A stretch of 64,000 bases of DNA, taken from IMG/VR virus record IMGVR_UViG_3300033233_000020, positions 31,071 through 95,070 of that record. One strand, 5' to 3'. Below, in pieces: positions 24,871 through 44,670 of this stretch; the first letter of the stretch is position 1; every line of letters begins with the position of its first letter. Source of the stretch: a virus. Made by a program: the position numbers and the translations under genes. The notes beneath the pieces are model-generated. The model was not told the DNA's origin. It made no database searches and saw nothing but the letters and a program-made list of their open reading frames with translations.

Positions 24871-24900
24871 GGGGCTGCGCATCCGAGCAACGCAGAAAAC
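24871..24900 (+). repeat. Early 5' hairpin motif A, copy 1
   Basis: GGGGCTGCGCATC-N6-ACGCAGAAAAC; CTGCG/CGCAG stem. Confidence 0.65.
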
Positions 24901-24918
24901 CAACGCACTTTCAGTCAA

Positions 24919-25209
24919 ATGACACCAGCAACAACAGCAACAGCACCAACAGCTAAGTGGAAGCATAACTGGCGTGAATCAACTGGCAACAGGCCAGTAG
25001 ACGCCAAGCTTTTCCACAGCTATGTGGAACAAGCGTATGAATTACTTAAGGAGTTTACTTCAGCAGACTTCTTATACCACGATGTGCGAGAGGTTTGCCA
25101 ACCACAGTATCTGTTCAGTGTCGTATCTGACATGACTGAGTGTAAGCTCAGCATGAAGATATATAACACTGAGTCAGGACTACGCGTCATTACCATCCAT
25201 AAGGTATAA
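24919..25209 (+). CDS. Early hypothetical protein
   Basis: ATG ORF after motif A1. Confidence 0.6.
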   Translation: MTPATTATAPTAKWKHNWRESTGNRPVDAKLFHSYVEQAYELLKEFTSADFLYHDVREVCQPQYLFSVVSDMTECKLSMKIYNTESGLRVITIHKV

Positions 25210-25303
25210 TACCAGCCAATAAGCTGTCGTTCACCCCAAACCCCTTGCTATCACTACGTTCTTATACCCATTTAGGCTAAGTATCTAGGTGGGGCAAATA
25301 AGA

Positions 25304-25332
25304 TTGTCGTAGCAATTAGGGCTATGTATAAA
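25304..25332 (+). promoter_or_regulatory. Sigma70-type early promoter
   Basis: TTGTCG-N17-TATAAA immediately before motif A2. Confidence 0.55.
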
Positions 25333-25334
25333 CA

Positions 25335-25364
25335 GGGGCTGCGCATCTGTAACACGCAGACAAC
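25335..25364 (+). repeat. Early 5' hairpin motif A, copy 2
   Basis: GGGGCTGCGCATC-N6-ACGCAGACAAC. Confidence 0.65.
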
Positions 25365-25383
25365 TCACTTGCCTATCAACATC

Positions 25384-25605
25384 ATGGATTACAACTTTTG
25401 GGATCCTAGTAAAGACTCCCTTTGGGGAGTTTACGAGAAAGGACAATGCGTTTATGTTTATTGCTCCAAGCTTGAAGCTCAATTTGCTGCCGAAGACATT
25501 GGCGGTCAATTGGTTGAAGTCAGCAATCAAGAGCTGCCAGACTTTTGGTTTTACAACGCAGGTCTCAATTTAATTCGCACAGGTTGTTATCACCAAGTCT
25601 ACTGA
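25384..25605 (+). CDS. Early hypothetical protein
   Basis: MDYNFWDPSK...; start reassigned downstream of motif A2. Confidence 0.6.
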   Translation: MDYNFWDPSKDSLWGVYEKGQCVYVYCSKLEAQFAAEDIGGQLVEVSNQELPDFWFYNAGLNLIRTGCYHQVY

Positions 25606-25678
25606 ACTGTAGTACTCCGTTTGCGGAGGGCCAGGTGCAACTCCTGGCTTCAGTTATTGCCTCCAGCGGAGATAGGCA
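25601..25678 (+). ncRNA. tRNA-elbow-like element B1
   Basis: ACTGAA/TTCAGT, CTCCG/CGGAG, GCCAGG-TGCAACT-CCTGGC, plus a 3' hairpin. Confidence 0.65.
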
Positions 25679-25698
25679 CCGCACACACGGAGAACACC

Positions 25699-25917
25699 GT
25701 GACCAACACTACTACAGCTACACTTCCTACCAGGGAAGAGCTAGCTAACACGGCCTACGATCTCATCCAGTTCTGGATGGAGTCAGGCCACTCGCAACTA
25801 CTAAGCCGTGAGCAAGCACTTGAGATTGCCGCATGGGGTCTCAAGATTGCTGGCGAACGCGAGTTGCAAGCCCAAGTTCTTGCGGAGCTTGTAGAGCTTC
25901 CCGAGAACTACGGCTGA
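25699..25917 (+). CDS. Early hypothetical protein
   Basis: GTG start with GGAG RBS. Confidence 0.6.
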   Translation: MTNTTTATLPTREELANTAYDLIQFWMESGHSQLLSREQALEIAAWGLKIAGERELQAQVLAELVELPENYG

Positions 25918-25980
25918 TCCGTCAAAGCGGAAGGCAGGGTGCAATTCCCTGCTCAGCAATTACCACTCACTGAGAGTGGT
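25913..25980 (+). ncRNA. tRNA-elbow-like element B2
   Basis: GCTGA/TCAGC, TCCG/CGGA, GCAGGG-TGCAATT-CCCTGC, ACCACTC-ACTGA-GAGTGGT. Confidence 0.65.
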
Positions 25981-25993: not shown

Positions 25994-26182
25994 ATGTCTA
26001 ACTACAAAACATTCAGCTTCGCTGTCACAGGCGTTGTAGCAACCATGGCTATTGTTTGTCACCTTGGTGTACAAGCACTAGACAAGGCTACAGCCGAACA
26101 ATGCAAGACACATGCATGGCCTCAGGTTGCACATCAAGTCCACATGGACTGGTGTGCAGACAATGGCTATGCAACCAACTGA
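25994..26182 (+). CDS. Small membrane-anchored protein
   Basis: N-terminal TM; C..H.WP...H..WC motif. Confidence 0.65.
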   Translation: MSNYKTFSFAVTGVVATMAIVCHLGVQALDKATAEQCKTHAWPQVAHQVHMDWCADNGYATN

Positions 26183-26247
26183 GTCCGTAAACACGGCACT
26201 GGGAGGTGTAAGTCCTCCCCCAGTTATTACCACCCACTGAGGGTGGT
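26177..26247 (+). ncRNA. tRNA-elbow-like element B3
   Basis: AACTG/CAGTT, CCGT/ACGG, GGGAGG-TGTAAGT-CCTCCC, ACCACCC-ACTGA-GGGTGGT. Confidence 0.65.
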
Positions 26248-26666: not shown

Positions 26667-26693
26667 TGTCCTAAGCATGACATTAAACTGCTA
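26667..26693 (+). ncRNA. Pseudoknot motif E, copy 1
   Basis: TGTC-CTAAGCAT-GACA-TTAAAC-TGCTA. Confidence 0.75.
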
Positions 26694-26721
26694 CCAACTC
26701 AACCTAACCCAACTAAAGACC

Positions 26722-26934
26722 ATGTCTCAATCTATTTTCGAAATTGAAAACGCATACGTATGCGTCGTGAATGGTGAACCAGAACTATTTGAGACACAAC
26801 AACAAGCAGAAGATCATGCCATGGAACTTAGCTTTGCATGGTATGACGCACAGCTTGATGTCCCTGCTCCGCGATTAGCAGTTATGTCAGTCACCAACTG
26901 GCTAAACCTGCAATCACGATTAGCACTCGTCTGA
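26722..26934 (+). CDS. Early hypothetical protein
   Basis: ATG 28 nt after E1. Confidence 0.6.
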   Translation: MSQSIFEIENAYVCVVNGEPELFETQQQAEDHAMELSFAWYDAQLDVPAPRLAVMSVTNWLNLQSRLALV

Positions 26935-26980
26935 TGTTTGCCCAGAGGGCTTCGGCCCTCTCTGCAGATTTCATATCTGC
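26931..26980 (+). promoter_or_regulatory. Alternative-hairpin element D1
   Basis: AGAGGGC-TTCG-GCCCTCT then GCAGAT-TTCAT-ATCTGC. Confidence 0.55.
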
Positions 26981-27426: not shown

Positions 27427-27427
27427 A

Positions 27428-27485
27428 CTGATCTCTGCACTTAACCCTGAGTAACACCAGGGCTTTCTGCAGGGTTCACCCCTGC
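27428..27485 (+). promoter_or_regulatory. Alternative-hairpin element D2
   Basis: CCCTG/CAGGG then GCAGGG-TTCAC-CCCTGC. Confidence 0.55.
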
Positions 27486-27966: not shown

Positions 27967-28196
27967 ACACCTATGTAGCACTCATTGCAGATGACAGTGG
28001 CAGATACTGTCACGTCTATGGCACTGCAAACACATGGCATAATTACGTAGACCAACTCGAAGAGCTGGGCTGCGAAGTTGTCGAAAATCAAACCGACGAC
28101 TATGACATACAAGACCTTGGTACCATCGACGATGAAATAGGCGTGGTACCCATCACCAAGCTACTAACATCCACTGACTTTATCCCCTGCAGATAA
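27963..28196 (+). CDS. Acidic hypothetical protein
   Basis: ATGA overlap with upstream gene. Confidence 0.6.
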   Translation: MNTYVALIADDSGRYCHVYGTANTWHNYVDQLEELGCEVVENQTDDYDIQDLGTIDDEIGVVPITKLLTSTDFIPCR

Positions 28197-28570
28197 TGAA
28201 TAACCCACAACATCCCATCACCCCACCGCCGGAGCTGGTGCAGCAGTGGTTGTGCTCAGACGACTACCTGTGGGGTCCGCTTGAGCAGACGTCCATCACC
28301 ATCACGACCAACCGGCTCCAGAACGTCGCCGCCCAAGCCGCCCAATGGGGCGCCGACCAGGAGCTGGAGGGGTGTTGTAGGTGGTTGCCGAAGCTACCCC
28401 CGTGGAGCGCAAACGACCTGCGCAAGCATCGCCGCCCCAAGCCGCCGAGCTTGAAGGAGCAGGCGCTAACTGCGCTACACGCTGTTGCAACAGGATCTAA
28501 TGACACCCGTGAGCAACACCAAGACCTTGACACTATTCGCCAAGCATTAGAGGCATTACCTAATGACTGA
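28196..28570 (+). CDS. Hypothetical protein (HPITPPPELVQQW family)
   Basis: GC-rich; N-terminus shared with the ORF at 35035. Confidence 0.7.
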   Translation: MNNPQHPITPPPELVQQWLCSDDYLWGPLEQTSITITTNRLQNVAAQAAQWGADQELEGCCRWLPKLPPWSANDLRKHRRPKPPSLKEQALTALHAVATGSNDTREQHQDLDTIRQALEALPND

Positions 28571-28772: not shown

Positions 28773-28799
28773 AGACCTGAGCATGTCTATAAACTGCTC
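28773..28799 (+). ncRNA. Pseudoknot motif E, copy 2
   Basis: AGAC-CTGAGCAT-GTCT-ATAAAC-TGCTC; stem 1 compensated. Confidence 0.75.
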
Positions 28800-28830
28800 C
28801 GCAAAACCCACATTCAATCCCCTGCAAATC

Positions 28831-29498: not shown

Positions 29499-29705
29499 TT
29501 AAGGAGCAAACTTCTGCATTTGATTTAATAATCTAATATCTGCTTGTTTTTTTATTACAGGAATGCTTTCATTATTTACAATAGACTCTAAAAAGCTTAT
29601 CACTTTATCTTGCGATGGCATAGAACCATGAGCTTTCATGTATTCTTGTTGCCATCCTTGCAGAAAAGGACTATTACTTATTGAATATCGACCAGCAATT
29701 AACAT
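29499..29705 (-). CDS. AT-rich antisense hypothetical gene (moron-like)
   Basis: Opposite strand; TAAAAT upstream. Confidence 0.45.
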   Translation of the reverse strand: MLIAGRYSISNSPFLQGWQQEYMKAHGSMPSQDKVISFLESIVNNESIPVIKKQADIRLLNQMQKFAP

Positions 29706-29811: not shown

Positions 29812-30096
29812 ATGCAAACCTACCCCGAGTATCCAGTGTCTGACCACGCAAACATCCTACGCATCATCAAGGAACTCAACGAGATCCTTACACGTGAATC
29901 CAAGCGTTACGAAATGGATGAGCACCTGACTCCATCTATGCGCAGCTTATTGGAGGAGGAGATCATTCCTGCACTAGAGAATGAAATCAATTGGGAACCA
30001 AGTGATGCAGACCTTGGCTATGGTGGTGAACCACCTATGACTGCTGATGAAATGCACACTGCTGCATGGCAACAGCACCAAGAACTACATAGGTGA
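29812..30096 (+). CDS. Hypothetical protein
   Basis: GEPPMTADEMHTAAWQQHQELH C-terminus. Confidence 0.65.
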   Translation: MQTYPEYPVSDHANILRIIKELNEILTRESKRYEMDEHLTPSMRSLLEEEIIPALENEINWEPSDADLGYGGEPPMTADEMHTAAWQQHQELHR

Positions 30097-30401
30097 GATA
30101 CTTGTAATCCGAGTAACTACCATCTATTCATAATCCGAATAACAAAGGGCTGGTACGCATTAGTACCTAAGCCTGGTGCGGCCAGGCACCCTTTGTTAAA
30201 CGACGGAATCCCAACGGGAAGAATAGATCACTGGCCAGTGAGGTCTCGAGAACCACACAAAGTCTAACTTTTAATCAAACTTAACTAACTCAGTACAAAT
30301 ACCCAATGAGACTAAGAGATCCCCCCTGCACCCCCCTGGCAACCCACCACCAGCACTATTAGATTTAGAAGTAAGTCCCATGTAATACACATAAGACTTA
30401 C

Positions 30402-30430
30402 TTGCTCTTCCTTGACATCCCTGATAGACT
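30402..30430 (+). promoter_or_regulatory. Sigma70-type promoter
   Basis: TTGCTC-N17-TAGACT. Confidence 0.5.
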
Positions 30431-30455
30431 ACCAACTCATTCACCCACTCATCTC

Positions 30456-30683
30456 ATGCCACTCATGTCACCACTCAACGACGCACCTAAGCCACGCATT
30501 CCAGATGCCATCGACAAGCAACGGCTGCAAGCAATGCAGCTCGTAGCAAAGATGAAAGAATCTGCGGATAAGTACGGCGTTGGTTTCGTCGGCGGCTTCA
30601 TCAGCCCCAACGGACAAAAGTTCATGATGACAAACATGAACGAAGATGACACCAACGCACTCTTGCCGGATGACCTTAAGTGA
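30456..30683 (+). CDS. Hypothetical protein
   Basis: ATG downstream of the promoter. Confidence 0.6.
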   Translation: MPLMSPLNDAPKPRIPDAIDKQRLQAMQLVAKMKESADKYGVGFVGGFISPNGQKFMMTNMNEDDTNALLPDDLK

Positions 30684-30919
30684 TTTACAAATCAATCACT
30701 GATCGTTACGAAAAGATATGGCAGATTACTGCAGAGGTAATTGCCCATCCTCACCGTACGATTACACCTCATGACAAACATCGTGCAACCGTTCTCATCA
30801 GCTTCTTATCCGGAGATGATGAGATGGTTGAATACATTCATTCTCAAATGAATGAAGATGATTTCAAACAGACCAAACAAATCCGCACCTTTGTACATGA
30901 CAAAAAAATCACCCATTAA
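30680..30919 (+). CDS. Hypothetical protein
   Basis: GTGA overlap with upstream gene. Confidence 0.5.
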   Translation: MIYKSITDRYEKIWQITAEVIAHPHRTITPHDKHRATVLISFLSGDDEMVEYIHSQMNEDDFKQTKQIRTFVHDKKITH

Positions 30920-31094
30920 CTTTGACAGAACCATCGCAGGTGTCAACATCACCGAGAATGGTATCAAGTCGTACACTAAATCGTTTCAGCTTGGTCCCTT
31001 CCAGCTGACACTTAATGCTCGTGACTCTGGCGTACATGGATCTATATCCTTGCCAGGCACAGGCTTGAGTAAGAGAAACATTAAGATAATCTAA
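30897..31094 (+). CDS. DUF4236-like small protein
   Basis: FQLGPFQLTLN...SISLPGTGLS. Confidence 0.5.
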   Translation: MTKKSPINFDRTIAGVNITENGIKSYTKSFQLGPFQLTLNARDSGVHGSISLPGTGLSKRNIKII

Positions 31095-31098
31095 AGAT

Positions 31099-31127
31099 AC
31101 GTCCTGAGTATGACGTTAAACTGCTCA
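31099..31127 (+). ncRNA. Pseudoknot motif E, copy 3
   Basis: ACGTC-CTGAGTAT-GACGT-TAAAC-TGCTCA. Confidence 0.8.
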
Positions 31128-31152
31128 TCACTCACCTTCAACTACCACTGCA

Positions 31153-31347
31153 ATGACTACAGCAAAACCATTTGAATCTAATCTCAACATACTTGACCGC
31201 GTTCATGTTGCAAATTGTGCAGCAGAACGTGCACGTATGTACTGCACCGATACCGAAAGGTTCAACGGTGAGTTTGCTACAGTACGCATGTGGACAAACT
31301 ACAAGTGTTTCATCTCGAACTACGGTAGCTACGTAGAAACTTACTAA
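31153..31347 (+). CDS. Hypothetical protein
   Basis: ATG 25 nt after E3. Confidence 0.6.
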   Translation: MTTAKPFESNLNILDRVHVANCAAERARMYCTDTERFNGEFATVRMWTNYKCFISNYGSYVETY

Positions 31348-31604
31348 TGTCTGTCTTATCTATTCACGACACATCAATTGATAACAACCATGTCACAGTT
31401 ACAGCAGTTGTGGAAGACATGCATCTCCTACGCAGAGCAACTCGCGATGACCCTGATCAATGGGGTCCAGGCCTTTGTTCAACATCTTTTGAACTGGCTG
31501 ACGACCAATCAATCCCTACTGATGAAGATGGCTTCTGCAGCTATCTTGATCAGCTTGACCCCCAATGGCAACTCGTTGACCTCTCTGATCGCTACCTAAC
31601 ATGA
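31347..31604 (+). CDS. Hypothetical protein
   Basis: TAATG overlap; VTAVVEDM...DPDQWGPGLC. Confidence 0.65.
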   Translation: MSVLSIHDTSIDNNHVTVTAVVEDMHLLRRATRDDPDQWGPGLCSTSFELADDQSIPTDEDGFCSYLDQLDPQWQLVDLSDRYLT

Positions 31605-31804
31605 TTGGCTTCTCCTTTGAATTCAAACGATGGTATGTAGTAGTACGTGGCCCCAAGGGTACCGTCTACTTAGCCTTTGGCTTTGCTAAGCAAATGCCTG
31701 TGTTCACACCAGCTAAAACTATGACTCTCCAAGAGTACATAGATGATTACAATGATGCCATCGTATTCACTAACGAAAGTGGTGAAGAGTTAATGCGCAT
31801 CTAA
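31601..31804 (+). CDS. Hypothetical protein
   Basis: ATGA overlap. Confidence 0.6.
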   Translation: MIGFSFEFKRWYVVVRGPKGTVYLAFGFAKQMPVFTPAKTMTLQEYIDDYNDAIVFTNESGEELMRI

Positions 31805-31807
31805 TCT

Positions 31808-31837
31808 AACGTCCTGAGTATGACGTTAAACTGCTCA
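31808..31837 (+). ncRNA. Pseudoknot motif E, copy 4
   Basis: Core identical to E3. Confidence 0.8.
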
Positions 31838-31863
31838 CACAATAAATCCACCCTTAACTCACC

Positions 31864-33573
31864 ATGCAGTTCCAACTACCCACAAATTTACAAACTGAGT
31901 TGATTGCGTATGATCCACAGCTCAAGGCTTTGGCTCGTACTCAAAAGCAATCAACAACCAAGAAATCTAAATACCCACTGGGTAATCCTATTGATCTTAT
32001 CCCTAATGAAATCATTACAGCAGAGAGAGTACAAGATGCCATTGATGCAATCAACAAGGCACCAGCCCCTGGTCGTTACCGCGAGTTCACCAAAGTAACG
32101 TCGACAGGTACAATAACCCACGCAGTCCTTTACCACTACGAACAAGTATGGTACGCAGCCTGGCTGCCACCTAAGGGCAAGGAAGCTGACTATATCTATG
32201 GCTATACCTATGCATACAAAGATACAGCTACTGTACGCAAGTTATTGCCACGTGCTTTAAACATGGCAAAAGATGATTGTGTAAACAAACCATCTGGTAG
32301 ATGTACGTTTGTTACTTATACACAACAAGTAACCAAACAAGATGTCATCAATGGAAGAGATACATATAATTGGAACATACCAAACATGCAACGATACGCG
32401 CAAAAATCACAAAATATGCGCGAACCTATTGATCGTTTTGAAAACCAAATTGAAATGTCTATACCTCAATGGAAAGACTCTAGAAATATATTCGAACGTA
32501 TCAAAACCACATGTATTGCAGAGTTATTTACACGTGATTTCCATACTGAATACTGGAAAGACATAAACAAATCCAAGTGGTTACCTTCTGTTGATATTAT
32601 CTTTAGCTTTATTAACAACCAAGATGTACACAGCTCATACAACTTATTCGCTGAAGATCTTTATGGTTATAAAAGTATCTTGCACATATTAGATACACCA
32701 TACTTTCGTAAGTGGATCCAAAACAAATGCAATGAATCTATAGAATCATTTAACAATCCAGATACTGATACAAAGATATCAATTACACAACCATGGCTTA
32801 TGATCTTTCATCTGTGTAAACAGATCAAAACCGTACACAATATCTGGGGAAATGCATGTCCTCTTGATTACTATCAAACAAACCTCAATGCTTTACTCAG
32901 TGTTAGTTATAACTCTGGTTACAGTAAAGACTATGCTTATCCGTGGCTAGTTAAACATATGCCTGTCGCTTCATTCTTTTCACTAGTAAATAAATTTTAC
33001 GAGACAAAGATAGACAACACGTCATCTTATTATTTTACAAACAGAATTGGAATATATCAATATCCTTTTAGGGAACTAGAAGATACATTGTCAATGGTTG
33101 AAACAATCCTCAAAGACAAAGGAGAACTAGCGCCACCAAAACGCTGGCGTATTACTGAGTTCCATGACTATGTACAAGCAGAAGCTTGGAAGATAACTAA
33201 TGTAAATCAAAGGCTACCACAAGACCTATTCCCTGTACCAGTCAAGGTTCAACACAATGAACAGAACTGGACATTCATTCAACCTATCGATACACACCAA
33301 CTTGCAGCCTGGGGTCAAGCCGTACGCAATTGCGTCGGCAATGCCACAGGTTATGCAGAAGGTGTACGCAAGAAACAACACTTTATTGTTCTATGCATGA
33401 TCAACAACCAACCACAGTTCACAGTCCAACTTAAAGTAAGTATGGGCATGATGACCGTTGATCAGATCGCTGGTGTCTCCAATGCCAGGCTAACGGATGA
33501 GCAACGTGAGTCTTATACAAAAGTATTTGGACAAGCGTTGCAACAACGTGAGGAAGTGCTAGCATCTGCTTAG
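31864..33573 (+). CDS. PcfJ-domain protein
   Basis: C-terminal FHD...QPIDTHQLAAWGQAVRNCVG...Y...QFTVQL..QIAG..NA. Confidence 0.7.
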   Translation: MQFQLPTNLQTELIAYDPQLKALARTQKQSTTKKSKYPLGNPIDLIPNEIITAERVQDAIDAINKAPAPGRYREFTKVTSTGTITHAVLYHYEQVWYAAWLPPKGKEADYIYGYTYAYKDTATVRKLLPRALNMAKDDCVNKPSGRCTFVTYTQQVTKQDVINGRDTYNWNIPNMQRYAQKSQNMREPIDRFENQIEMSIPQWKDSRNIFERIKTTCIAELFTRDFHTEYWKDINKSKWLPSVDIIFSFINNQDVHSSYNLFAEDLYGYKSILHILDTPYFRKWIQNKCNESIESFNNPDTDTKISITQPWLMIFHLCKQIKTVHNIWGNACPLDYYQTNLNALLSVSYNSGYSKDYAYPWLVKHMPVASFFSLVNKFYETKIDNTSSYYFTNRIGIYQYPFRELEDTLSMVETILKDKGELAPPKRWRITEFHDYVQAEAWKITNVNQRLPQDLFPVPVKVQHNEQNWTFIQPIDTHQLAAWGQAVRNCVGNATGYAEGVRKKQHFIVLCMINNQPQFTVQLKVSMGMMTVDQIAGVSNARLTDEQRESYTKVFGQALQQREEVLASA

Positions 33574-33622
33574 CTCGCACAGCTTGCCGGTCCTATCCTC
33601 GTAAGTAGGGCCGGTACCACCT

Positions 33623-34222: not shown

Positions 34223-34225
34223 TTA

Positions 34226-36268: not shown

Positions 36269-36563
36269 GAAACAATCCATTCCTAAGTTCCAGATCGGTG
36301 ACCGTGTCGCTGAAAAACCAAAGCCTCGCGCTATCTATGCAAAGACTGCGGCAACAATTGAGCGCATCAAACCGTATACAGTTCAACGGTATGGTACAGT
36401 ACTTGACACGGTGTACAACAACACCAGAGGTAAAGTTGCTGTGCCTTACGTCAAGATTATGTGGGATGGTGCACAATCACCAGTCACCCATGCACAGTGC
36501 CGCATCTGTTTAGAGAAAGATCTAACAGCGGTAACCATTGATTACTTCAATGCAAGAGATTAA
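36261..36563 (+). CDS. SH3/KOW-like hypothetical protein
   Basis: KFQIGDRV...RYGTV...VKIMWDG. Confidence 0.55.
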   Translation: MSKKQSIPKFQIGDRVAEKPKPRAIYAKTAATIERIKPYTVQRYGTVLDTVYNNTRGKVAVPYVKIMWDGAQSPVTHAQCRICLEKDLTAVTIDYFNARD

Positions 36564-36565
36564 TT

Positions 36566-36907
36566 ATGCACTGTACTAACTGTGAAAAGTTTGATGCTCG
36601 TATTGTTGAGTCTCGATTACGTCTAGATGGTACACGCTATAGAAGGTATGCATGTAACAATTGTTCACGTCGATGGACAGTCAACCAGGCAAACGCAGCA
36701 AACCCACGGCCAAGGCTACCTAACACAGGTTACAAAACACAACAAGTAAATCGTAAACTAACTAACATGGAAGTGGCTGAGATCATAATGTCTCCGCTTA
36801 CCAACAGGGAACTAGCTTGTATCTACCCTATATCACATCAATCAATTCAAAAGATACAAGCCGGGAAAACATATCGTGAAGTTTATTTGGTGTTAAAGGA
36901 ACATTAA
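36566..36907 (+). CDS. Second NrdR-like Zn-ribbon plus HTH protein
   Basis: MHCTNC...IVESR...YRRYACNNCSRRWT; KLTNMEVAEI...GKTY. Confidence 0.65.
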   Translation: MHCTNCEKFDARIVESRLRLDGTRYRRYACNNCSRRWTVNQANAANPRPRLPNTGYKTQQVNRKLTNMEVAEIIMSPLTNRELACIYPISHQSIQKIQAGKTYREVYLVLKEH

Positions 36908-36908
36908 A

Positions 36909-37223
36909 ATGAATACTACCTTACGTCACAGGCACAATCGAATGAGAGAATCTGAGTTATCAAAAGACGGTAAATCCTTTCACCCTGTTATTAAAAATGT
37001 AGCTCGTGCAATAAGCGACTGGCATTCAGAGCACGATTGGTTTTTTCAAACTGATCGAGCCATTCGTACTATTGATGCTATTGCTGTCGAGCTAAACAAG
37101 GAAGGACACAAGGAAGCTGCCAAGTATTTAGGCAGGATAATTGATGGCAATGAACTTAAAGCTAAGTCTCCAGACTTAGCTGAAACTACAGAAGAAACAA
37201 AGTTTAGTGCTTTGTATTTTTGA
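36909..37223 (+). CDS. Hypothetical protein
   Basis: 104-aa ORF. Confidence 0.55.
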   Translation: MNTTLRHRHNRMRESELSKDGKSFHPVIKNVARAISDWHSEHDWFFQTDRAIRTIDAIAVELNKEGHKEAAKYLGRIIDGNELKAKSPDLAETTEETKFSALYF

Positions 37224-37228
37224 TTATT

Positions 37229-37256
37229 CGTCCTGAGTATGACGTTAAACTGCTTA
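37229..37256 (+). ncRNA. Pseudoknot motif E, copy 5
   Basis: CGTC-CTGAGTAT-GACG-TTAAAC-TGCTTA. Confidence 0.8.
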
Positions 37257-37308
37257 AGTATTACAGATAAGTTTTACTTATCTTCACATCTAACTCAACT
37301 CATCTAAA

Positions 37309-38073
37309 ATGAAACTTCTTAAATTCTCCACCGGTAACGCCAAGCTTGGTAAGCGTTTGATCTTCAGCATCCCATCGGGCTACACTTGCCCAGGTGCTGG
37401 TGTATGCAAGACTTTTGCTGACCGTGTCACAGGCAAGATTCTTGACTTGCCACAGTTCAATGGGACCATCGCAGATGAGTTTCGTTGTTTTGCGGCAATG
37501 TCGGAGACCAGGCCAAATGTACGAGATGCACGTTGGTACAACTGGGACTTACTCAAGGAAGTAATGTATTCATCTGACAACCAGACTAGTGCGCTAACCG
37601 GGTTGATAGAACTATCTATTGCAGTACAACCGGTTCTTGATCTTTGTAGGATCCATGAGGGAGGTGACTTTTGGACTGAGCTATACATGAAAGCTTGGCT
37701 TAATGCTGCACGTAACCACAGCAACCGTAAGTTCTATGCTTATACCAAGTCTTTGAACATGTGGTTAAACCTTAAGCAAGACATCCCATCAAACTTTTAC
37801 CTTACTGCATCAGTAGGTGGTACTCTTGATGCCATGATCCCAGGTAATCTAGATACCTTTAAGCGTGTTGCTTATGTTGTGTACACAGAACAACAAGCGG
37901 CTGAACTAGGCCTAGAGATTGACCATGATGATGAGCATTGCTTTGGTGACAAACCGTTTGCATTACTGGTTCATAGCTCCCAGCGGGCAGGATCACTTGC
38001 TTCTCAAGCGTTAACTCAACGCAGGAAGGATGGCATGTGGACTGGGTACAACAAAGCAAAAGTTGCAGCATAA
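37309..38073 (+). CDS. GP88-like (radical-SAM-related) phage protein
   Basis: GNAKL, FSIPSGYTCPGAGVC, CFA, RIHEGGDF, FYAYTKS. Confidence 0.75.
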   Translation: MKLLKFSTGNAKLGKRLIFSIPSGYTCPGAGVCKTFADRVTGKILDLPQFNGTIADEFRCFAAMSETRPNVRDARWYNWDLLKEVMYSSDNQTSALTGLIELSIAVQPVLDLCRIHEGGDFWTELYMKAWLNAARNHSNRKFYAYTKSLNMWLNLKQDIPSNFYLTASVGGTLDAMIPGNLDTFKRVAYVVYTEQQAAELGLEIDHDDEHCFGDKPFALLVHSSQRAGSLASQALTQRRKDGMWTGYNKAKVAA

Positions 38074-38126
38074 CCCTTGCATTTGTGTGGAAGGTCTGTA
38101 GTATTTACATGATCTTCCACATTGTT

Positions 38127-38360
38127 ATGCCCTACGTTATCTCCACAGTTGAAGACAATGTTAATTACTGCATCACTGCAGATAAAGAAACCATGTCATT
38201 CCAATTGATTCCTGTAGAATCAGATTCAGATTTATCACACGTGTTTAGCCATCCTTACCAAAGCGGTGCGTTAAATATCCTTCGTTGGATCCAAGCTAAT
38301 GACCAAGCTCTCGCCAGTAAAGACCTCGTCATTTCCGATGAAGGACGATTCCGGCACTAA
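38127..38360 (+). CDS. Hypothetical protein
   Basis: ORF overlapping the polA start. Confidence 0.5.
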   Translation: MPYVISTVEDNVNYCITADKETMSFQLIPVESDSDLSHVFSHPYQSGALNILRWIQANDQALASKDLVISDEGRFRH

Positions 38361-40164
38361 GAAATTTTTTGTGTTCGATTTGGAAACTGACGGTCTGTAC
38401 GATGAAGTTACAACGATTCACTGTCTGGTCTTACATGATCTCAACAGAGACCAGACTTTTACTTATGGGCCTGACAGCATTGCTGCTGGTCTTGAGCAGC
38501 TGGCTACCGCTCATGTTCTAATAGGACAGAACATTTTATTTTTTGACATCCCTGTGATACGTAAGCTGTATCCGTTCTATACCTTTGCGGCTGCTCGTAT
38601 TATTGACACACTCATTACAACACGACTCATCTGGCCTAAGGAAAAACTCTATGACATGGACACAGAACAATATACGCAGGTTCCACCGAAGCTGCGGGGT
38701 TCGGCATCGCTCAAAGCATGGGGCTATCGCCTATCAGATTACAAGATTAGCTTTAAAGATTTCAAAAAGTACAGCGAAGAGATGTTGGCATACTGCATTC
38801 AGGATGTTAATGTCACTACGCAATTGTTTAGGCACACGCAGAAACAGTCATGCTCTGAGGCGGCGCTCAAACTGGAACATGATTTTGCTTTGGCAATTGA
38901 AAAACAAATTAGGTCAGGTTTTCCTTTTGATGTGGATGCATGTCTTGATCTGGTGGATAATCTCAGAACAAAACAGGCGACGCTCGAAGCTAACTTGAAG
39001 GAACTATTCCCACCTAAAAAGATCGAGACAGTATTTATTCCTAAGGTAAACAATGCAAGTCGTGGTTATGTCAAGGGCCAACCGTTTACTAAAGTCATAC
39101 ATGAAGAATTTAATCCTGGGTCGCGTCAACAAATTGTAGATCGTCTGCAAACTAAGTACGGATGGGTGCCAGAGAAGTCAACAGAGAAAGGAAACCCGAT
39201 CTTAGATGATGACGTACTAAGTGCATTGCCATACCCAGAGGCTAAGCCCTTAGCTGAGTACATGTTGATTAAGAAAAGACTTGGTCAGATTGCTGATGGT
39301 AATAATGCTTGGCTTAAGTTAGTTAATGATAAGACCGGATGCATGCACGGTGATGTCGTAACTAACGGGTGTATTACAGGACGATGCGCACACCGCAACC
39401 CAAACATGGGGCAGGTTCCCGCTGGTTACTCAGAGTACGGTAAAGAATGCCGTGGATTATTTCATGCACCTGATGGCTGGACCTTGATTGGTGTAGATGC
39501 TAAAGCTTTAGAACTGCGTTGTCTTGCTGGTTACCTTGCCCATTGGGATGGCGGAGAGTATGCACGTGTAGTAACAGATGAATCAATTGACATTCACGTG
39601 TTTAATAAAAAGATGTTTGGTGTGCCTACCAGAGACATAGCAAAGCGTTTGCTGTATGGCTTGTTGTATGGATGTGGTGCACTCAAAGCGGGAACAATTA
39701 TTGATCCGAATGAAAAGAATGAATTAGTTTTGCGTGAACTAGGAAGTACCGCAATCAATTCATTCATGAAAGGTATACCCGCATTGAAAGAACTTAAGAA
39801 CAGAATTGCAAATAACATTGCAGCTCGTGGTTACCTTATTGGTTTAGATGGTAGACCACTTTTTTGTAGATCTGATTTCAAAGGATTGAATGTATTACTA
39901 CAAGCATCTGGTGCACTAATAATGAAACAAGTTGTTATTGAACTGCATAACAAGATGTACGGCCTTGGTTATATTTACGGTCATGACTGGCAGCAAAACG
40001 CTATGATCCATGACGAAATTCAGGTATCTTGCCCACCAGCTATGGTGGATACCCTGACAACCGTTGCATTAGAAGCGTTCCCTGCATCGCAACAATTCTT
40101 TAACTTCCAGTGTCCTATTGAAGGGGATGCTCATGTAGGATACTGCTGGTCTGATACTCATTAA
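38338..40164 (+). CDS. polA: Family A DNA polymerase with 3'-5' exonuclease (T7-like)
   Basis: ExoI FDLETDG; ITGR..HRNPNMGQVP; motif A DAKALELR; motif B RDIAKRLLYGLLYG; motif C IHDEIQ. Confidence 0.95.
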   Translation: MKDDSGTKKFFVFDLETDGLYDEVTTIHCLVLHDLNRDQTFTYGPDSIAAGLEQLATAHVLIGQNILFFDIPVIRKLYPFYTFAAARIIDTLITTRLIWPKEKLYDMDTEQYTQVPPKLRGSASLKAWGYRLSDYKISFKDFKKYSEEMLAYCIQDVNVTTQLFRHTQKQSCSEAALKLEHDFALAIEKQIRSGFPFDVDACLDLVDNLRTKQATLEANLKELFPPKKIETVFIPKVNNASRGYVKGQPFTKVIHEEFNPGSRQQIVDRLQTKYGWVPEKSTEKGNPILDDDVLSALPYPEAKPLAEYMLIKKRLGQIADGNNAWLKLVNDKTGCMHGDVVTNGCITGRCAHRNPNMGQVPAGYSEYGKECRGLFHAPDGWTLIGVDAKALELRCLAGYLAHWDGGEYARVVTDESIDIHVFNKKMFGVPTRDIAKRLLYGLLYGCGALKAGTIIDPNEKNELVLRELGSTAINSFMKGIPALKELKNRIANNIAARGYLIGLDGRPLFCRSDFKGLNVLLQASGALIMKQVVIELHNKMYGLGYIYGHDWQQNAMIHDEIQVSCPPAMVDTLTTVALEAFPASQQFFNFQCPIEGDAHVGYCWSDTH

Positions 40165-40359
40165 ACATGGAGTCAACTGAACTTCTCATCAATAAAAAAT
40201 CTGATTTAAAAATTGTTTGTCCTGAGCACGGGACACACGACCAGTACATTAGTAGCGCCATTAAAGGATATGAAGGCTATTGGTGCATGTTGTGTTGGCT
40301 TAAAAGTCTTGGTGATCCACTACCAATAAGTCCGTGGTCATAATCAAAAAATAGTTTTT

Positions 40360-40386
40360 CGTCCCAAGTATGACGTTAAACTGCTT
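40360..40386 (+). ncRNA. Pseudoknot motif E, copy 6
   Basis: CGTC-CCAAGTAT-GACG-TTAAAC-TGCTT. Confidence 0.8.
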
Positions 40387-40407
40387 TAACACTACCCTTT
40401 TGATTTC

Positions 40408-41217
40408 ATGAATCAAACATTTGTTTGCGCTCAAACAACCGAAGTCCCTCGCGAAGTTGCCATCAGTGCTACTAACTACGCTATGCGTTGTGCAGTATTG
40501 TTGCCTCCCGTTGGGAACAAAGCTCCAACTTCAATCGAACTTAATGTCTATGGAAAAAGTGCAGAACGTTTCGCTCGTACAACTCGAGGGGCGCAGATCT
40601 ACATTCACGGCGCCAAGCTACGTTTCGATCTGGAGTCCCGTACGTATTCTTTGCATGGAGGAATCATTGCAACGGTGGATGAATCATTCCCGATCCTTAA
40701 CACCGTTATCCTCAGTGGACGTTGCGTTAAAGACATCGATCAAGAAGACGCACGTGCTTTTAAAACAACCGCTGATAAGTTAATGATTTGTAATCAAACT
40801 CTTTCAGTTAACACTGGAAGAAATCAAGCAGATCTATTTAACTTCTATGCAATTAACACTGCACAAGATAAGTTAAATAACGCTGAGCTTTTGGTTAACT
40901 TCACACGTAAAGGTGTGGGTCTTACTATCCAAGGCAAGCTGACTACCGATGCCTGGGTTGATGCAACAACCAAGGAGAAACGGACAGCCACCAAGATTCA
41001 ATTGGTGAACATGACCCTGTCACCTAAAGGCAATGATGGTTCCAAGGCAATCCAGCCGCAAGCAACGGTTGCATCTGAGGGAGAAGCTGCTACCCTATGG
41101 GGTGGTAAGAGTGCTGAAGACGAATCAGACGCTTGGACCAAGACCTCTGGTGGTAGCCTGCCTGATCTTCCTGGTCAGTACGGCCCAGTACCTGAACTAG
41201 CTCACGAACCATTCTAA
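40408..41217 (+). CDS. ssb: Single-stranded DNA-binding protein with two OB folds
   Basis: Two N..(I)LSGR-type starts; KGVGLTIQGKLTTDAWVD; acidic tail ending EPF. Confidence 0.75.
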   Translation: MNQTFVCAQTTEVPREVAISATNYAMRCAVLLPPVGNKAPTSIELNVYGKSAERFARTTRGAQIYIHGAKLRFDLESRTYSLHGGIIATVDESFPILNTVILSGRCVKDIDQEDARAFKTTADKLMICNQTLSVNTGRNQADLFNFYAINTAQDKLNNAELLVNFTRKGVGLTIQGKLTTDAWVDATTKEKRTATKIQLVNMTLSPKGNDGSKAIQPQATVASEGEAATLWGGKSAEDESDAWTKTSGGSLPDLPGQYGPVPELAHEPF

Positions 41218-41226
41218 TTTAAACTA

Positions 41227-41457
41227 ATGATTGATTTTAAAATTGATTCTGAAAATCCGCATTTATTGCATACAGCAATAGCATACGATTTTTTCTTTGA
41301 AAACTATGGTAAATTTCTTGACGCTGCAGTTGCAGCAGGAAAGAATGACATAGAGTTGGTTGATGAAATGGAAAGAATATTAGATCTTTCTTTTGAAATG
41401 GCCAACATGTTTACATCAAAAGTACAACAAGAACAAAAGATTGATGACAACATTTAA
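41227..41457 (+). CDS. Hypothetical protein
   Basis: ORF in the replication operon. Confidence 0.55.
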   Translation: MIDFKIDSENPHLLHTAIAYDFFFENYGKFLDAAVAAGKNDIELVDEMERILDLSFEMANMFTSKVQQEQKIDDNI

Positions 41458-41683
41458 TCAATTTAAGTTTGAAAAGACTGACAGCAATTCAACACTTACT
41501 CTTGAAGTAGGTGCTGATGGTTGCCAAGAGATTGTAGATGAGTTTATTCGTTTTATGCGTGGATGTAGCTTTATAGATGTAAACATCTATGACGCTATGG
41601 AAAATGCAGTCGAAGAACACACTGCTTATCAAAAGCACATTAACCAAGCTGCCAAGCTTGGTCTTCATGTACCAGGTGAATAA
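41444..41683 (+). CDS. Hypothetical protein
   Basis: EIVDEFIRFMRGCSF motif. Confidence 0.6.
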   Translation: MTTFNQFKFEKTDSNSTLTLEVGADGCQEIVDEFIRFMRGCSFIDVNIYDAMENAVEEHTAYQKHINQAAKLGLHVPGE

Positions 41684-41693
41684 GTAAGTCGTC

Positions 41694-41722
41694 ACGTCCT
41701 AGGCAAGACGTAAAACTACCTA
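41694..41722 (+). ncRNA. Pseudoknot motif E, copy 7
   Basis: ACGTC-CTAGGCAA-GACGT-AAAAC-TACCTA. Confidence 0.75.
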
Positions 41723-41743
41723 CCACCCATCTCTGACTTAATT

Positions 41744-42847
41744 ATGACAACCACTCCGGTTGATATGATGAGTAAAGCTTGGATCGATAAGATCGAAGCT
41801 GAAACAAAACCCTCTGAACAAACCTTTAACACATCTAAGAAAATGGCTGTAAAGAAAACTTCTTCTTCCTTGGCTACACGTGGACTGGATTCATTCCTTG
41901 CTTTTCAATCCAAAGAATTTATTTCAGGTTACCAAAACCTCGTCACCCTCCAGCCCCTTAACAAATCCAAGACACGAGGTTGGTTCGTGCGGAACTCAGA
42001 CCTTGACACTTGCGGATGGAGTGCCACTGACAATCAATTTGCTAAAGGTTCAGTTCTCTGGAACTACAAGCAAACTTTTGGTATGGCTCCCAATACTTCA
42101 GTGGAAGAAGGACTCAATTTCACTGAGCCTCGTTTACAAATCCTTTTGCGTTCCCCACTTATGGTTGAGGAAGCTACAGGGATGAGGCAAACGATTGGTA
42201 CGTTTGACAATCCTGATGTCAAAGAACTATGGGATGCAGACAAGCTAGCTGCTGATCTTGCCAACAGCAAAGGCGAGATGTACAAACGTAAGTACAGTGT
42301 ACGTACAAAGTACTTGGTGTACATTCTTACCGAAGACAATGCACGTGCCCACAAGATTCCAATGGTACTTACCTTGAAGGGATTGAATGGCACTGATGTA
42401 TCAGAGAAGGTAAAGCTGTACGAAAAAGAAATGTCTAAGTGTTTGAGCAAGGCGCTGGACTCTGAGATCCCTCTAGCATTTAACGAAAAGTTTTATGCCA
42501 CTACTGTGTTTGCTCCCGTACTTGCTAACGAGATGCGTGGTGCCAACAATGTAGAGATCTGTGCTATTGAATCGTTTGACATTCCAGAATACACCGATCA
42601 AGCAACTGCTGTTGAATCGTTGAGCCGTATGTCAATTCCAGACGAAGATCGTGCTTCTACCTGGAAGTATCAAGAAATGTTCAATGATTACATAAATCAA
42701 CATTCACGGCAAGATGCTGAAAAGCTAGGTGGTGCCTATGGTATCAAGCCTGGCGTACAGATTCTTCCTGCAAATCGTGGCGAAGCAGTTGATGTAAAAG
42801 CATTGCCTGCTCGTGATGAAACTACAGGTGAGGATTTTTCTCTCTGA
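41744..42847 (+). CDS. Conserved-looking protein, possibly DUF5895-like (ssDNA/recombination-associated)
   Basis: 367 aa; RLQILLRSPL and YLVYILTEDN..AHKIPMVLTLKG; family recalled, not verified. Confidence 0.45.
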   Translation: MTTTPVDMMSKAWIDKIEAETKPSEQTFNTSKKMAVKKTSSSLATRGLDSFLAFQSKEFISGYQNLVTLQPLNKSKTRGWFVRNSDLDTCGWSATDNQFAKGSVLWNYKQTFGMAPNTSVEEGLNFTEPRLQILLRSPLMVEEATGMRQTIGTFDNPDVKELWDADKLAADLANSKGEMYKRKYSVRTKYLVYILTEDNARAHKIPMVLTLKGLNGTDVSEKVKLYEKEMSKCLSKALDSEIPLAFNEKFYATTVFAPVLANEMRGANNVEICAIESFDIPEYTDQATAVESLSRMSIPDEDRASTWKYQEMFNDYINQHSRQDAEKLGGAYGIKPGVQILPANRGEAVDVKALPARDETTGEDFSL

Positions 42848-42848
42848 G

Positions 42849-43100
42849 TTAAGACTCTGAGGTAGATATTGGGCCAGGCGTCAAGCTTGGCCCTTTACTT
42901 TCCAAAAGTATTTTCTTCATCAATCCACATATGACTCCCTGCCTTTGTGTTGCAACTGTCAACAACAGAATTGCAATCTCTCGCAATTAACTTACGGAGT
43001 TGCATTCGTTAATCATTCGTTGAGTTTTTTCTTTCCAAAACAAATCATTAATGCTTGGAGCTAGCTCCATACCATCAAACACACCACTGGATTCTTCCAT
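42849..43100 (-). pseudogene. NblA-like ORF interrupted by an in-frame TAA (42987-42989)
   Basis: MEESSGVFDGMELAPSINDLFWKEKTQRMINECNSVS*LREIAILLLTVATQRQGVICGLMKK... Confidence 0.45.
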
Positions 43101-43138
43101 TGGTTTTAAGCAATCAATTCATTCTACCTAAAACAATC

Positions 43139-44104
43139 ATGTCTACACAACTGCTTGAACTTAATGCAGCGCAAACTTTAATTTACAATCGCAGTAATTT
43201 ACGTCGTGCTGTCAAAGATTTTGATGATACGGAAATCGCCGGCATTAGCTTGCGAGATAATCTTGTGGTTGTGGTTCGTACTGATGGTAGTGAGCAAATT
43301 TACCCACGGAAAATAGTTGTTGCTGCCTACCAGGAATACACGAGCCGTCTTAAACATTTCTTTTCTTACCTTGGACCTAACTACCGTGGACCATCGATCT
43401 GGCACAACAACGGCTACGTACTCTTCAAGGGATGGACATACGGCCATGCCCTTGGACACATTACTGCTAATGCAAAACTACAAGCGTCGTGGGCCGATAA
43501 GTTTATCCATATCAATGATCAAACAAAACTGGAGGCGTTACTACAATCAGAACATACGGACATTGGGTATCTCATTGCCCCTGAAGGCTTCCGTCATATG
43601 CAATCAATTGAACTCGGCTCTGCTCTTAATGATTCTCCAGGTGATGACGCTGAGTCACAAGCTGAGAATGATAAGCCTAAAGAATATGCGCCGTATTGCT
43701 CATGCGGATCGTTCAAGAAACAACTAAATAATTTAGTTAATTTCCAACAGGAGATTCTTGGGTACAGGCCGACATGTATCCACATGACCTGGCTGCACAA
43801 GTACAGAGCCCTTCTCTCTGAGCGGTCTAGGGTCAGGACAGAGGTGCGTGGCGGTGCAGCGGTAAAGTGTGTAGCATGGGCTTACGCCCCGCCTGAAGAC
43901 CACATCAGCAAGGGACGCTTTGTTCTATTGCATACCAACTCAGGATCTATGGCACCCATCAGCCACTGGCGTTCCTACAAATCAAACGAGGTGTTTACTG
44001 AAGAACATGCATGGGATCTATTCTTTAATATGCTTGAGGCTGACTATGTACCATTCCCTTTGACATCCTTGCCCCAACTATCTTCTGCGCTTAAGAAAAA
44101 ATGA
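43139..44104 (+). CDS. SWIM zinc-finger protein
   Basis: CSCGSF...PTCIH. Confidence 0.65.
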   Translation: MSTQLLELNAAQTLIYNRSNLRRAVKDFDDTEIAGISLRDNLVVVVRTDGSEQIYPRKIVVAAYQEYTSRLKHFFSYLGPNYRGPSIWHNNGYVLFKGWTYGHALGHITANAKLQASWADKFIHINDQTKLEALLQSEHTDIGYLIAPEGFRHMQSIELGSALNDSPGDDAESQAENDKPKEYAPYCSCGSFKKQLNNLVNFQQEILGYRPTCIHMTWLHKYRALLSERSRVRTEVRGGAAVKCVAWAYAPPEDHISKGRFVLLHTNSGSMAPISHWRSYKSNEVFTEEHAWDLFFNMLEADYVPFPLTSLPQLSSALKKK

Positions 44105-44319
44105 CTGACACCTTTGACCCAGCTAGTTGGGTATACAAGTTACACATTGAAGTTATTAATGAAGAAGACGGATCTGCTACCATTCAAATTGAATGGGATG
44201 AAACAGATTCTGAGCTTGACTATTGGAATAGCTTAGGTAAAGAAGGGCAAGAAAAATTTATTATAGATGCTCTTTATGCTTCATTTGAAAACCTTGGACT
44301 CACTACCAATGACACTTGA
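44101..44319 (+). CDS. Hypothetical protein
   Basis: EEDGSATIQIEWDE motif. Confidence 0.6.
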   Translation: MTDTFDPASWVYKLHIEVINEEDGSATIQIEWDETDSELDYWNSLGKEGQEKFIIDALYASFENLGLTTNDT

Positions 44320-44638
44320 CACCTACGGATTACCAGAAGAAGAGTACCTTTCTGTCTTTGAAGAAAAAGCTGAGTTTGCTTGTAAAGCATTGAATATTGT
44401 ATTGAAGGTAGCAAAAAGTCAAAACATAGATCTTAGTCTTAAATTGTTTTGGGATTTGTACCAGGAGATTGGCTATGCAACAGATGATGCATGCCGTGTA
44501 AAACAAAAACAAGAAGACCCTGAAGCACTTGAAGCGCGTAGTTATTCATCAAGTACTTATCCCACAACGGCTGCAGTTTTTGCTGAGGTGCAAAAACTAG
44601 AAAAGTTAATACAATCTGTTATCGAATCAAAAGAATAA
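44309..44638 (+). CDS. Hypothetical protein
   Basis: ORF in operon. Confidence 0.55.
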   Translation: MTLDTYGLPEEEYLSVFEEKAEFACKALNIVLKVAKSQNIDLSLKLFWDLYQEIGYATDDACRVKQKQEDPEALEARSYSSSTYPTTAAVFAEVQKLEKLIQSVIESKE

Positions 44639-44642
44639 AGTA

Positions 44643-44670
44643 ACGTCCTAGGTATGACGTAAAACTACCC
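44643..44670 (+). ncRNA. Pseudoknot motif E, copy 8
   Basis: ACGTC-CTAGGTAT-GACGT-AAAAC-TACC; stem 2 compensated (GGTA/TACC). Confidence 0.8.

Follow-up and report, generated by a model that had tools for sequence, protein, structure and literature searches.

Covarying RNA folds at the gene junctions of an S-EIV1-like cyanophage, among them a coremin-like pseudoknot also present in bacteria

How a phage without an RNA polymerase of its own sets the expression of each gene carried on one transcript is poorly understood, especially in cyanobacteria, which have weak Shine-Dalgarno sites and lack Rho. The virus record IMGVR_UViG_3300033233_000020 of IMG/VR raises this question, and we have analyzed the right-hand 64 kb of its 95 kb (positions 31,071 to 95,070, hereafter the window, whose first letter is position 1). 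The phage is an S-EIV1-like freshwater cyanophage: positions 30000–44000 are 81% identical to Synechococcus phage S-EIV1 (KJ410740), with 59% of the stretch covered, and no T7-like RNA polymerase was found in it. An earlier note on this DNA had described five families of repeated elements, A to E, at the gene junctions between 24.9 and 44.7 kb, and had read them as an RNA punctuation code. All five were found, every one on the plus strand, and coordinates were recovered for each of the two copies of A, three of B, two of D and eight of E that had been counted (Table 1). They are strand-specific structures at the RNA level, located at cistron junctions, tolerating G-U pairs and conserved across a widespread phage lineage; S-EIV1, which is in culture, has E, B, C and D. 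The term “code” overstates the data. None of the five matched an Rfam family above threshold, a comparison that covered Rfam, with the catalogue of phage structured RNAs (PMC10690425) lying outside it.

The clearest evidence comes from family E, i.e., eight plus-strand copies of a 28-nt element, with no other copy on either strand of the 95-kb genome. The element has the architecture of an H-type pseudoknot: stem 1 CGUC/GACG, loop 1 C-Y, stem 2 RRGY/RCYY, a two-nucleotide junction A-W and loop 3 UUAAACU. We built a covariance model from the 4-bp hairpin of stem 1 alone and searched with it the window, S-EIV1 and 80 related viral loci, which had been retrieved by way of the gene for the single-stranded DNA-binding protein (SSB). 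This gave 317 matches, all on the gene strand. Since stem 2 had been left out of the model, the alignment was not fitted to its pairs. Among 136 distinct copies, stem 1 was paired in 100% and G8, U9, C10 and G21, A22, C23 were invariant or nearly so, while three of the stem-2 pairs were freely exchanged (AU 63/GC 36/GU 18; AU 77/GC 48/GU 7; CG 71/UG 52/UA 9), the fourth being GC in 132. The covariation score of stem 2 was reached by none of 500 shuffles and every shifted register failed; since G-U pairs are frequent, the structure can be assigned to the sense strand. The five complete genomes of relatives contain four to six copies each, on a single strand per genome. Copies are syntenic among relatives, and the counterpart of the copy preceding the SSB gene appears in nearly all SSB-centered loci as a match at ~9947–9991. 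A looser first pattern had given a mixture of chance and genuine matches on viral contigs. No Rfam family exceeded its threshold for any copy of E; below threshold, GP20-b and the plant-virus UPD pseudoknot, which shares GUUAAACUG, were retrieved, and E-value scans of the window between 24 and 47 kb and of single copies otherwise returned only noise.

Family B has another layout, studied in copies from loci fetched through an early gene and from the early regions of the five complete genomes, all five of which have it (40 candidates, some 38 of them convincing). From 5' to 3' come a stem P1, a small hairpin P2, a T-arm-like hairpin P3, the P1' strand, a linker, a hairpin P4 and the start codon. 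The stop codon of the upstream gene, usually TGA, falls in the P1 region in 36 of the 40. Although P1 varies between 4 and 10 bp and P3 between 5 and 7 bp, their sum is 11–12 bp in 32 of 40 copies, and in 34 P1' directly adjoins P3. The acceptor/T-arm stack of a tRNA measures 12 bp. The loop of P3 is always 7 nt long; UUCGACU and UUCAACU are canonical T-loops, and most loops are UGCAAnn or AUCGAAU, one position off. The linker is a nearly invariant A followed by an invariant UU, and P4 begins 1–4 nt past it. There is a pseudoknot subtype of P4 (25655–25700 and relatives) in which a loop GCGG or UGUGG is compensated by a downstream CCGC or CCACA; after this subtype, to which B1 belongs, come a true GGAG Shine-Dalgarno and a GTG start, unlike in the other leaders. 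When 19 copies of one subtype were aligned with MAFFT, without fitting to the fold, 95.8% of cells were paired against 78.7% in shuffled controls, and 11 of 14 pairs had changed on both sides. RNAalifold, run on an alignment of mixed subtypes that were misaligned with each other, recovered three pairs only. By this analogy B appears to mimic the acceptor/T-arm stack of tRNA, and as its geometry is that of RNase P and RNase Z substrates, cutting there can be predicted.

The remaining families are smaller. We found about 24 convincing copies of D, whose three segments covary (for example CUCUGCA/UGCAGGG/CCCUGC vs. AUCUGCA/UGCAGGU/ACCUGCA). Two pairings are open to the middle segment: with the first it makes a long stem topped by a variable apical hairpin, and with the third a small hairpin. 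A stop codon precedes the first segment by 0–6 nt, and a ribosome terminating there would be expected to favor the second fold. Family C has a stem that is mostly CUGGG/CCCAG, an internal loop CA.../...GUAAGY and a variable apex, usually right after a stop codon; the 7-nt strand of this loop is the T-loop-like loop of B3. Three copies had been counted; the window holds two, plus a C-like hairpin at 33585–33616, and a further copy near 30371 is doubtful. Directly before the tRNA-Leu region, a C-like hairpin (CACUUGG...GUAAGC CCAAGUG) is kept in relatives. For the additional C that had been placed in the late module we reached no certain identification, a minus-strand hairpin at 52279–52293 being the candidate. 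With the basal stem of C varying among relatives, as do stem 2 of E, the pairs of B and the segments of D, the compensatory changes claimed earlier for B to E are borne out. Family A has homologues in six related loci and no covariation. A sigma-70-like promoter directly precedes A2, overlapping an inverted repeat that looks operator-like, and the arrangement of promoter, inverted repeat and A is found also in the related loci L001, L201, L202 and L211. The order A, B, D, then C and E proposed for the families holds only roughly, because E1, at 26667, precedes D.

The position of E relative to the flanking codons is also informative. Over 176 copies, the gap from the stop codon to E was shorter than 5 nt in only 8 and exactly 5 nt in 75, which is the peak, with a tail upward. 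On the other side there is a sharp floor of 22–25 nt between the second base of the 3' strand of stem 2 and the start codon, again with a tail. These spacings are lower bounds rather than fixed values, and two such floors would fit an element that needs to stay folded, lying as close to the terminating and initiating ribosomes as seems possible without either of them unfolding the knot. The leaders 3' of E contain 5.6% G and the 24 nt following E have no predicted structure in 87% of the copies, in agreement with the A/C-rich leaders described before. The elements might instead be mainly translation devices, in which a stable fold some 13–25 nt before the AUG (the E knot, P4 of B or the second hairpin of D) would recruit or position the 30S subunit, or retain terminating ribosomes for re-initiation, on messages without Shine-Dalgarno. 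The G-poor, unstructured leaders agree with such a role, as do the distances between fold and start codon (22–25 nt for E, 12–21 nt for P4 of B, 19–31 nt for the small hairpin of D). Besides, the stop codons within or adjoining the first helix of B and D imply that a terminating ribosome must remodel them, and the loop of E (C-Y...A) with its 4-bp “codon” helix may resemble an anticodon loop paired to mRNA. However, lower bounds with tails are what steric exclusion would give, not fixed registers; in bacteria the distance from knot to start ranges from 21 to >50 nt, with Shine-Dalgarno sites present and some copies followed by terminators, and translation through E has no preferred frame. On balance we regard a mainly translational role as unlikely. 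Translation through E, in the −1 or the read-through frame to an AUGA overlap, was considered separately and rejected: the two frames are equally open and 19 of 158 end at the start codon. Nothing indicated that E is translated or directs a consistent change of frame, and it has no slippery site.

The blocks of homology with S-EIV1 and with the related locus L202 end at A2, B2/B3, E1, D1, D2 and C1, so that the elements double as cassette boundaries. This coincidence, together with a conserved length of E similar to that of a promoter for a single-subunit RNA polymerase, would suit repeats that matter mainly as DNA, whether as short homologies for cassette exchange (cf. the promoter-early stem-loops, PeSL, of T4-type phages), as single-stranded DNA signals or as promoters. 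We find this very improbable, given that the covariation, with its frequent G-U pairs, concerns the sense strand only, that positions are tied to stop and start codons, that E is syntenic and not mobile and that no T7-like RNA polymerase was found; recombination at repeats is an expected side effect. E as the promoter of a phage RNA polymerase was discarded on two of these counts, i.e., no such T7-like enzyme and a G-U covariation that points to RNA.

E is not particular to this phage. The search for its core, a 24-base pattern requiring exact matches, gave at least 120 in bacterial genome contigs, where chance would give <1; among those listed are Desulfobacterota, Omnitrophota, Bacillota, Saccharibacteria, Actinomycetota, Chloroflexi and others. 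Matches also came from viral contigs, at least 119 of them and many beyond the S-EIV1 group. Stem 2 covaries in the bacterial copies too. The knot is found soon after the stops of small genes (often 5–10 nt), in Omnitrophota 5' of genes for Rrf2 regulators and in Bacillota 5' of phage scaffold and prohead-protease genes. In many loci of anaerobes (e.g., L250:1170–1370 and L289:6700–6900) a small conserved open reading frame (ORF) ending in ...AHC(K/S/G)EGC, with no Pfam match, precedes the knot; an Rrf2 regulator or copper/YHS-type genes often come next. In a Bradymonadales metagenome-assembled genome (MAG; L226:1750–1870) an E-type knot lies within an apparent CRISPR spacer flanked by two copies of a 37-nt repeat. 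Another contig (L356:4620–4800) carries three knots ~75 nt apart, the first two each directly followed by a terminator-like hairpin and U run.

Two more explanations have to be weighed against this distribution. E, and perhaps C, could be an operator for a trans-acting factor, either the phage SSB or another phage protein that would repress a regulon of replication genes, or a small ligand in the manner of preQ1-I. In T4, gp32 represses through a leader pseudoknot followed by an unstructured leader, and a copy of E stands before the SSB gene in almost all relatives, with an unstructured leader after the knot and near-invariant loop bases; its topology and A-rich third loop resemble the preQ1-I and SAM-II knots, and the tandem knot-plus-terminator units of L356 look attenuator-like. 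A phage-specific protein is made less likely, however, by the presence of this sequence in many phyla and beside genes that are unrelated. Moreover, the phage copies have no expression platform (the 3' strand of stem 2 lies ~20 nt from the AUG, with no terminator), the Rfam PreQ1 model did not match even at E ≤ 10 over a 76-nt stretch, and the SSB is a bacterial-type OB-fold protein rather than a gp32. An operator thus seems to us quite unlikely.

The other explanation is that the knot is a minimal self-cleaving RNA or part of one. A Selenomonadaceae MAG contig (L257) carries three type-P1 twister-like matches (79–133, 665–719 and 2289–2343; 36–41 bits with a gathering threshold of 67, E-values 1e-5 to 2e-4) and, on the same strand, four E-type knots, two of them ~120 nt 3' of such a match. 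Small ribozymes cluster at phage gene junctions, and the near-invariant single-stranded bases of the knot would suit catalysis. Yet 28 nt is well below the size of any known natural self-cleaver, no Rfam ribozyme model matches the knot and relatives of the coremin motif, compared below, are stable enough to outlast exonuclease assays (PMC6546385). Self-cleavage is, in our opinion, the most improbable of the explanations considered.

The elements are set in a gene array running from ~24.9 to 47 kb in which nearly every gene is on the plus strand and the majority are small and unassigned to a family. Those that could be identified code for a family A DNA polymerase, an OB-fold SSB, a GP88-like protein, a PcfJ-like protein, a DUF5895 protein and two NrdR-like zinc-ribbon proteins. 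Pfam scans of 30 early/middle proteins gave no RNA-binding or RNase candidate. Terminator-like sites are few in the region (24646, 34677, which is weak, and 42871), the last of them likely closing one transcription unit, and a generic promoter scan there gave nothing exceeding chance. The 5' part of the genuine tRNA-Leu overlaps the final codons and TAG stop of the ORF at 33623–33847, and relatives have tRNAs at the equivalent junction.

Table 1. Elements and other features located in the window.
Feature	Position	Strand	Remarks
A1, invariant CUGCG-11 nt-CGCAG hairpin	24867–24900	+	preceded by GGGG
Sigma-70-like promoter (TTGTCG, 17-nt spacer, TATAAA)	25304–25332	+	overlaps ATTGT..ACAAT inverted repeat; directly 5' of A2
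A2, second A hairpin	25331–25364	+	few bases into the transcript if the upstream promoter is used
B1, putative tRNA top-half mimic	25601–25678	+	TGA stop in P1; P3 loop UGCAACU; AUU linker
B2, putative tRNA top-half mimic	25913–25980	+	P3 loop UGCAAUU
B3, putative tRNA top-half mimic	26177–26247	+	P3 loop UGUAAGU
E1, 28-nt coremin-like H-type pseudoknot	26667–26694	+	
D1	26932–26980	+	closing stem 1 nt past TGA, apical hairpin, alternative 3' hairpin reusing the middle segment
D2, three-segment element	27427–27485	+	CUCUGCA / UGCAGGG / CCCUGC
E2, pseudoknot	28773–28800	+	two compensated stem-1 pairs (AGAC/GUCU)
C1	29738–29795	+	CCUGGG/CCCAGG stem, CA.../...GUAAGU internal loop, inner hairpin; 3' of extended -10-like TGTTAATAT
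E3, pseudoknot	31100–31127	+	
E4, pseudoknot	31810–31837	+	5' of 569-aa PcfJ-like gene
C-like hairpin	33585–33616	+	10-bp stem, loop ends GUAAGU
tRNA-Leu(UAA), genuine	33830–33915	+	in-line in the gene array; sole Rfam call at gathering threshold
C3	34226–34255	+	UUUGGG/CCCAGA stem, GUAAGU loop
E5, pseudoknot	37229–37256	+	5' of GP88-like gene
E6, pseudoknot	40360–40387	+	directly 5' of SSB gene; position most conserved of the E copies
E7, pseudoknot	41695–41722	+	stem 2 UAGG/CCUA; 5' of DUF5895 gene
Intrinsic-terminator-like hairpin and T-rich tail	42871–42893	+	3' of DUF5895 gene
E8, pseudoknot	44644–44671	+	

Some other features of the window deserve mention. ARAGORN reports a tRNA-like gene on the minus strand (49700–49773), below the Rfam threshold and with an undetermined, two-base anticodon. 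The genes at 28196–28570 and 35035–35523 share an N-terminal coding segment (28208–28370 and 35044–35209, 80–98% nucleotide identity), which on this similarity we regard as an internal paralogous domain. The array of plus-strand genes is broken by a lone AT-rich ORF of 68 amino acids on the minus strand (29499–29705), followed by the extended -10-like TGTTAATAT and then C1; ORF and TGTTAATAT may form a regulatory node. Within the non-coding stretch 30097–30455 there is a Y-shaped RNA motif (30135–30200) with an outer stem enclosing, in order, a hairpin with loop GCAUUA, the sequence UAA and a hairpin with a UGCG loop. All three stems have compensatory changes among at least seven relatives, and no Rfam family matched the motif.

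What these folds would do can be put forward with about even confidence. The 20-kb co-directional early/middle array would be transcribed into long polycistronic RNAs, which the folds at the junctions would divide into units, with E acting as a roadblock, B as a cut site, D as a switch and A as a 5' hairpin. E would be a compact and mechanically robust pseudoknot of the coremin (xrRNA-C or Watson-Crick coremin) design, folded between terminating and initiating ribosomes. It would stop most likely the host 5'-3' exonuclease RNase J, and perhaps also RNase E in its scanning or stray ribosomes, which would leave every downstream gene with a protected 5' end. B would be cut by the enzymes of tRNA processing, by RNase Z or by RNase E in the A-UU linker and possibly by RNase P on the 5' side. 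RNase Z prefers a U after the discriminator base. The upstream gene would thereby acquire a tRNA-like 3' end, and the downstream one a hairpin 1–4 nt from its new 5' end. D would refold when the ribosome terminating upstream covers its first segment, A would be the 5'-terminal hairpin of primary transcripts, and C a hairpin with a T-loop-like internal loop awaiting a partner. The folds, their strand, their conservation and their position relative to stops and starts are observed and support the earlier reading in part, with indirect support for two members of its proposed toolkit, B through its substrate-like geometry and E through the core it has in common with coremin. We infer the cleavage, end protection and ribosome loading from the resemblance to tRNA substrates and to coremin. 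As the genuine tRNA-Leu lies in-line, tRNA enzymes must already act on this RNA; and RNases E and J are both essential in cyanobacteria (PMC8682795).

The comparison with known systems helps to place these elements. PeSL of T4-type phages and the REP-type intercistronic stabilizers are likewise short structured repeats, at early-gene junctions where the homology blocks of relatives end, but here there are several distinct, covarying and complex folds positioned with respect to stops and starts, not a simple promoter plus hairpin. The minimal frameshift knot of luteovirus type, that of beet western yellows virus, is similar to E in being an H-type knot of 26–28 nt whose loop 1 has 2 nt and whose A-rich loop 3 has 7 nt, and a knot 5 nt past the A-site codon has the geometry of frameshifting; E differs in lacking a slippery site and an extended open frame in consistent use. 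The T4 gene 32 leader shares with E6 a knot and an unstructured leader ahead of an SSB gene, whereas the eight copies of E precede unrelated genes and the SSB is not gp32-like. From preQ1-I, E is set apart by the 3' strand of stem 2, which ends ~20 nt before the AUG, and by leaders without Shine-Dalgarno. A closer case is Rfam GP20-b (RF03003), a candidate cis-regulator of phage scaffold genes. A knot from Enterococcus, located 5' of a scaffold gene (PF06810), can be aligned over the full length of this model, whose 5' half carries the arrangement GUC...G(G/A)CG-UAAAA-stem. The scores are low, nevertheless (14.8 bits in L263 and 19.2 in L221, for a gathering threshold of 36.2), the phage copies of E gave no match at all, and GP20-b has a second hairpin and a 3' tail.

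For B the obvious parallel is tRNA punctuation, as in the polycistrons of mitochondria, the t-elements of plant mitochondria and MALAT1-mascRNA. Like those, B stacks a T-arm-like hairpin against a stem that resembles the acceptor, and it lies between coding regions of one transcript, with a genuine tRNA in the same array. B differs from a tRNA in having one extra arm instead of two, that second arm being non-canonical, no anticodon arm and G at position 55 in most loops, and also in its stop codon within the acceptor-like stem, its conserved AUU linker and its fourth hairpin. Should tRNA enzymes cut B, it would provide an example of tRNA-style punctuation from a phage.

The parallel for E is coremin (xrRNA-C) of eukaryotic RNA viruses. 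This motif, GUCCGAAGACGUUAAACUAC, consists of a GUC/GAC hairpin with a YGAD loop, a conserved spacer and, as a further necessary part, a second hairpin. Its effects are the stalling of Xrn1, a block to scanning ribosomes and the promotion of −1 frameshifting; variants with loops of 6–8 nt or with a Watson-Crick stem 2 are functional, and those with loops of 7 and 8 nt, e.g., CGAGUAA, are still resistant to Xrn1 (PMC10520033, PMC10321173, PMC6546385). The 3-bp stem GUC/GAC of hairpin 1 is identical in E, which also has the coremin spacer GUUAAACU; for the ~10-nt spacer GUUAAACUAC, E reads G-U-(U/A)-A-A-A-C-U-(G/A)-C, with A27–A29 and U31 invariant and C30 in 148 of 150 copies. The loop begins with a pyrimidine and ends in A-D, and the usual location is 3' of coding regions or intergenic. 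As in xrRNA-WCC, antiparallel Watson-Crick pairs join loop bases to the 3' end of the spacer, although stem 2 of E has 4 bp and its register is 2 nt further 3'. The strings “bacteri” and “prokaryot” do not appear in the paper on coremin frameshifters, nor does “bacteriophage” in that on scanning ribosomes.

Several points weigh against a roadblock in E and a cut site in B. The 8-nt loop of E, CYRRGYAW, has Y instead of G at position 2 and fits neither YGAD nor YGNNAD, and the second hairpin required by coremin is present in 8 of 176 copies (3.25 expected from shuffling). In the bacterial host the 5'-3' exonuclease is RNase J, which has no relation to Xrn1; we know of no documented knot that resists RNase J. 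The near-invariant loop bases would equally fit a specific protein, a ligand or a catalytic role. In bacteria the knot sometimes lies 5' of an intrinsic terminator or in tandem with terminators, and precedes also genes that possess Shine-Dalgarno sites, so that its role may be broader or different. As for B, neither ARAGORN nor the Rfam tRNA model calls it a tRNA, the tRNA-Leu being the only one found, and a cut by RNase P at the base of P1 would delete the stop codon of the upstream gene.

To our knowledge, the coremin fold has so far been known only from plant and fungal RNA viruses. With the stem, the spacer and a Watson-Crick stem 2 in common, but with an 8-nt loop and no second hairpin, E is coremin-like, not a proven member, a likeness that judging by its sequence would be one of design. 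We propose tentatively, and with clearly less confidence than the division of the transcript itself, that the E-type knot may be the prokaryotic counterpart of coremin, a universal 28-nt roadblock to 5'-3' exonucleases and ribosomes with which phages and bacteria of many phyla would fix the ends of their mRNAs, and that in this phage lineage it would join the tRNA-mimic cut sites of B and the termination-sensing switch of D in a true punctuation system for polycistronic messages. If E does block RNase J or ribosomes, bacterial mRNA decay would be linked to a fold of plant and fungal viruses and synthetic biology would gain a 28-nt insulator. In any case its core is a simple search key to hundreds of uncatalogued copies in bacteria and phages, and the lineage supplies several defined, covariation-rich RNA folds that are open to direct test beside their counterparts in coremin and tRNA.

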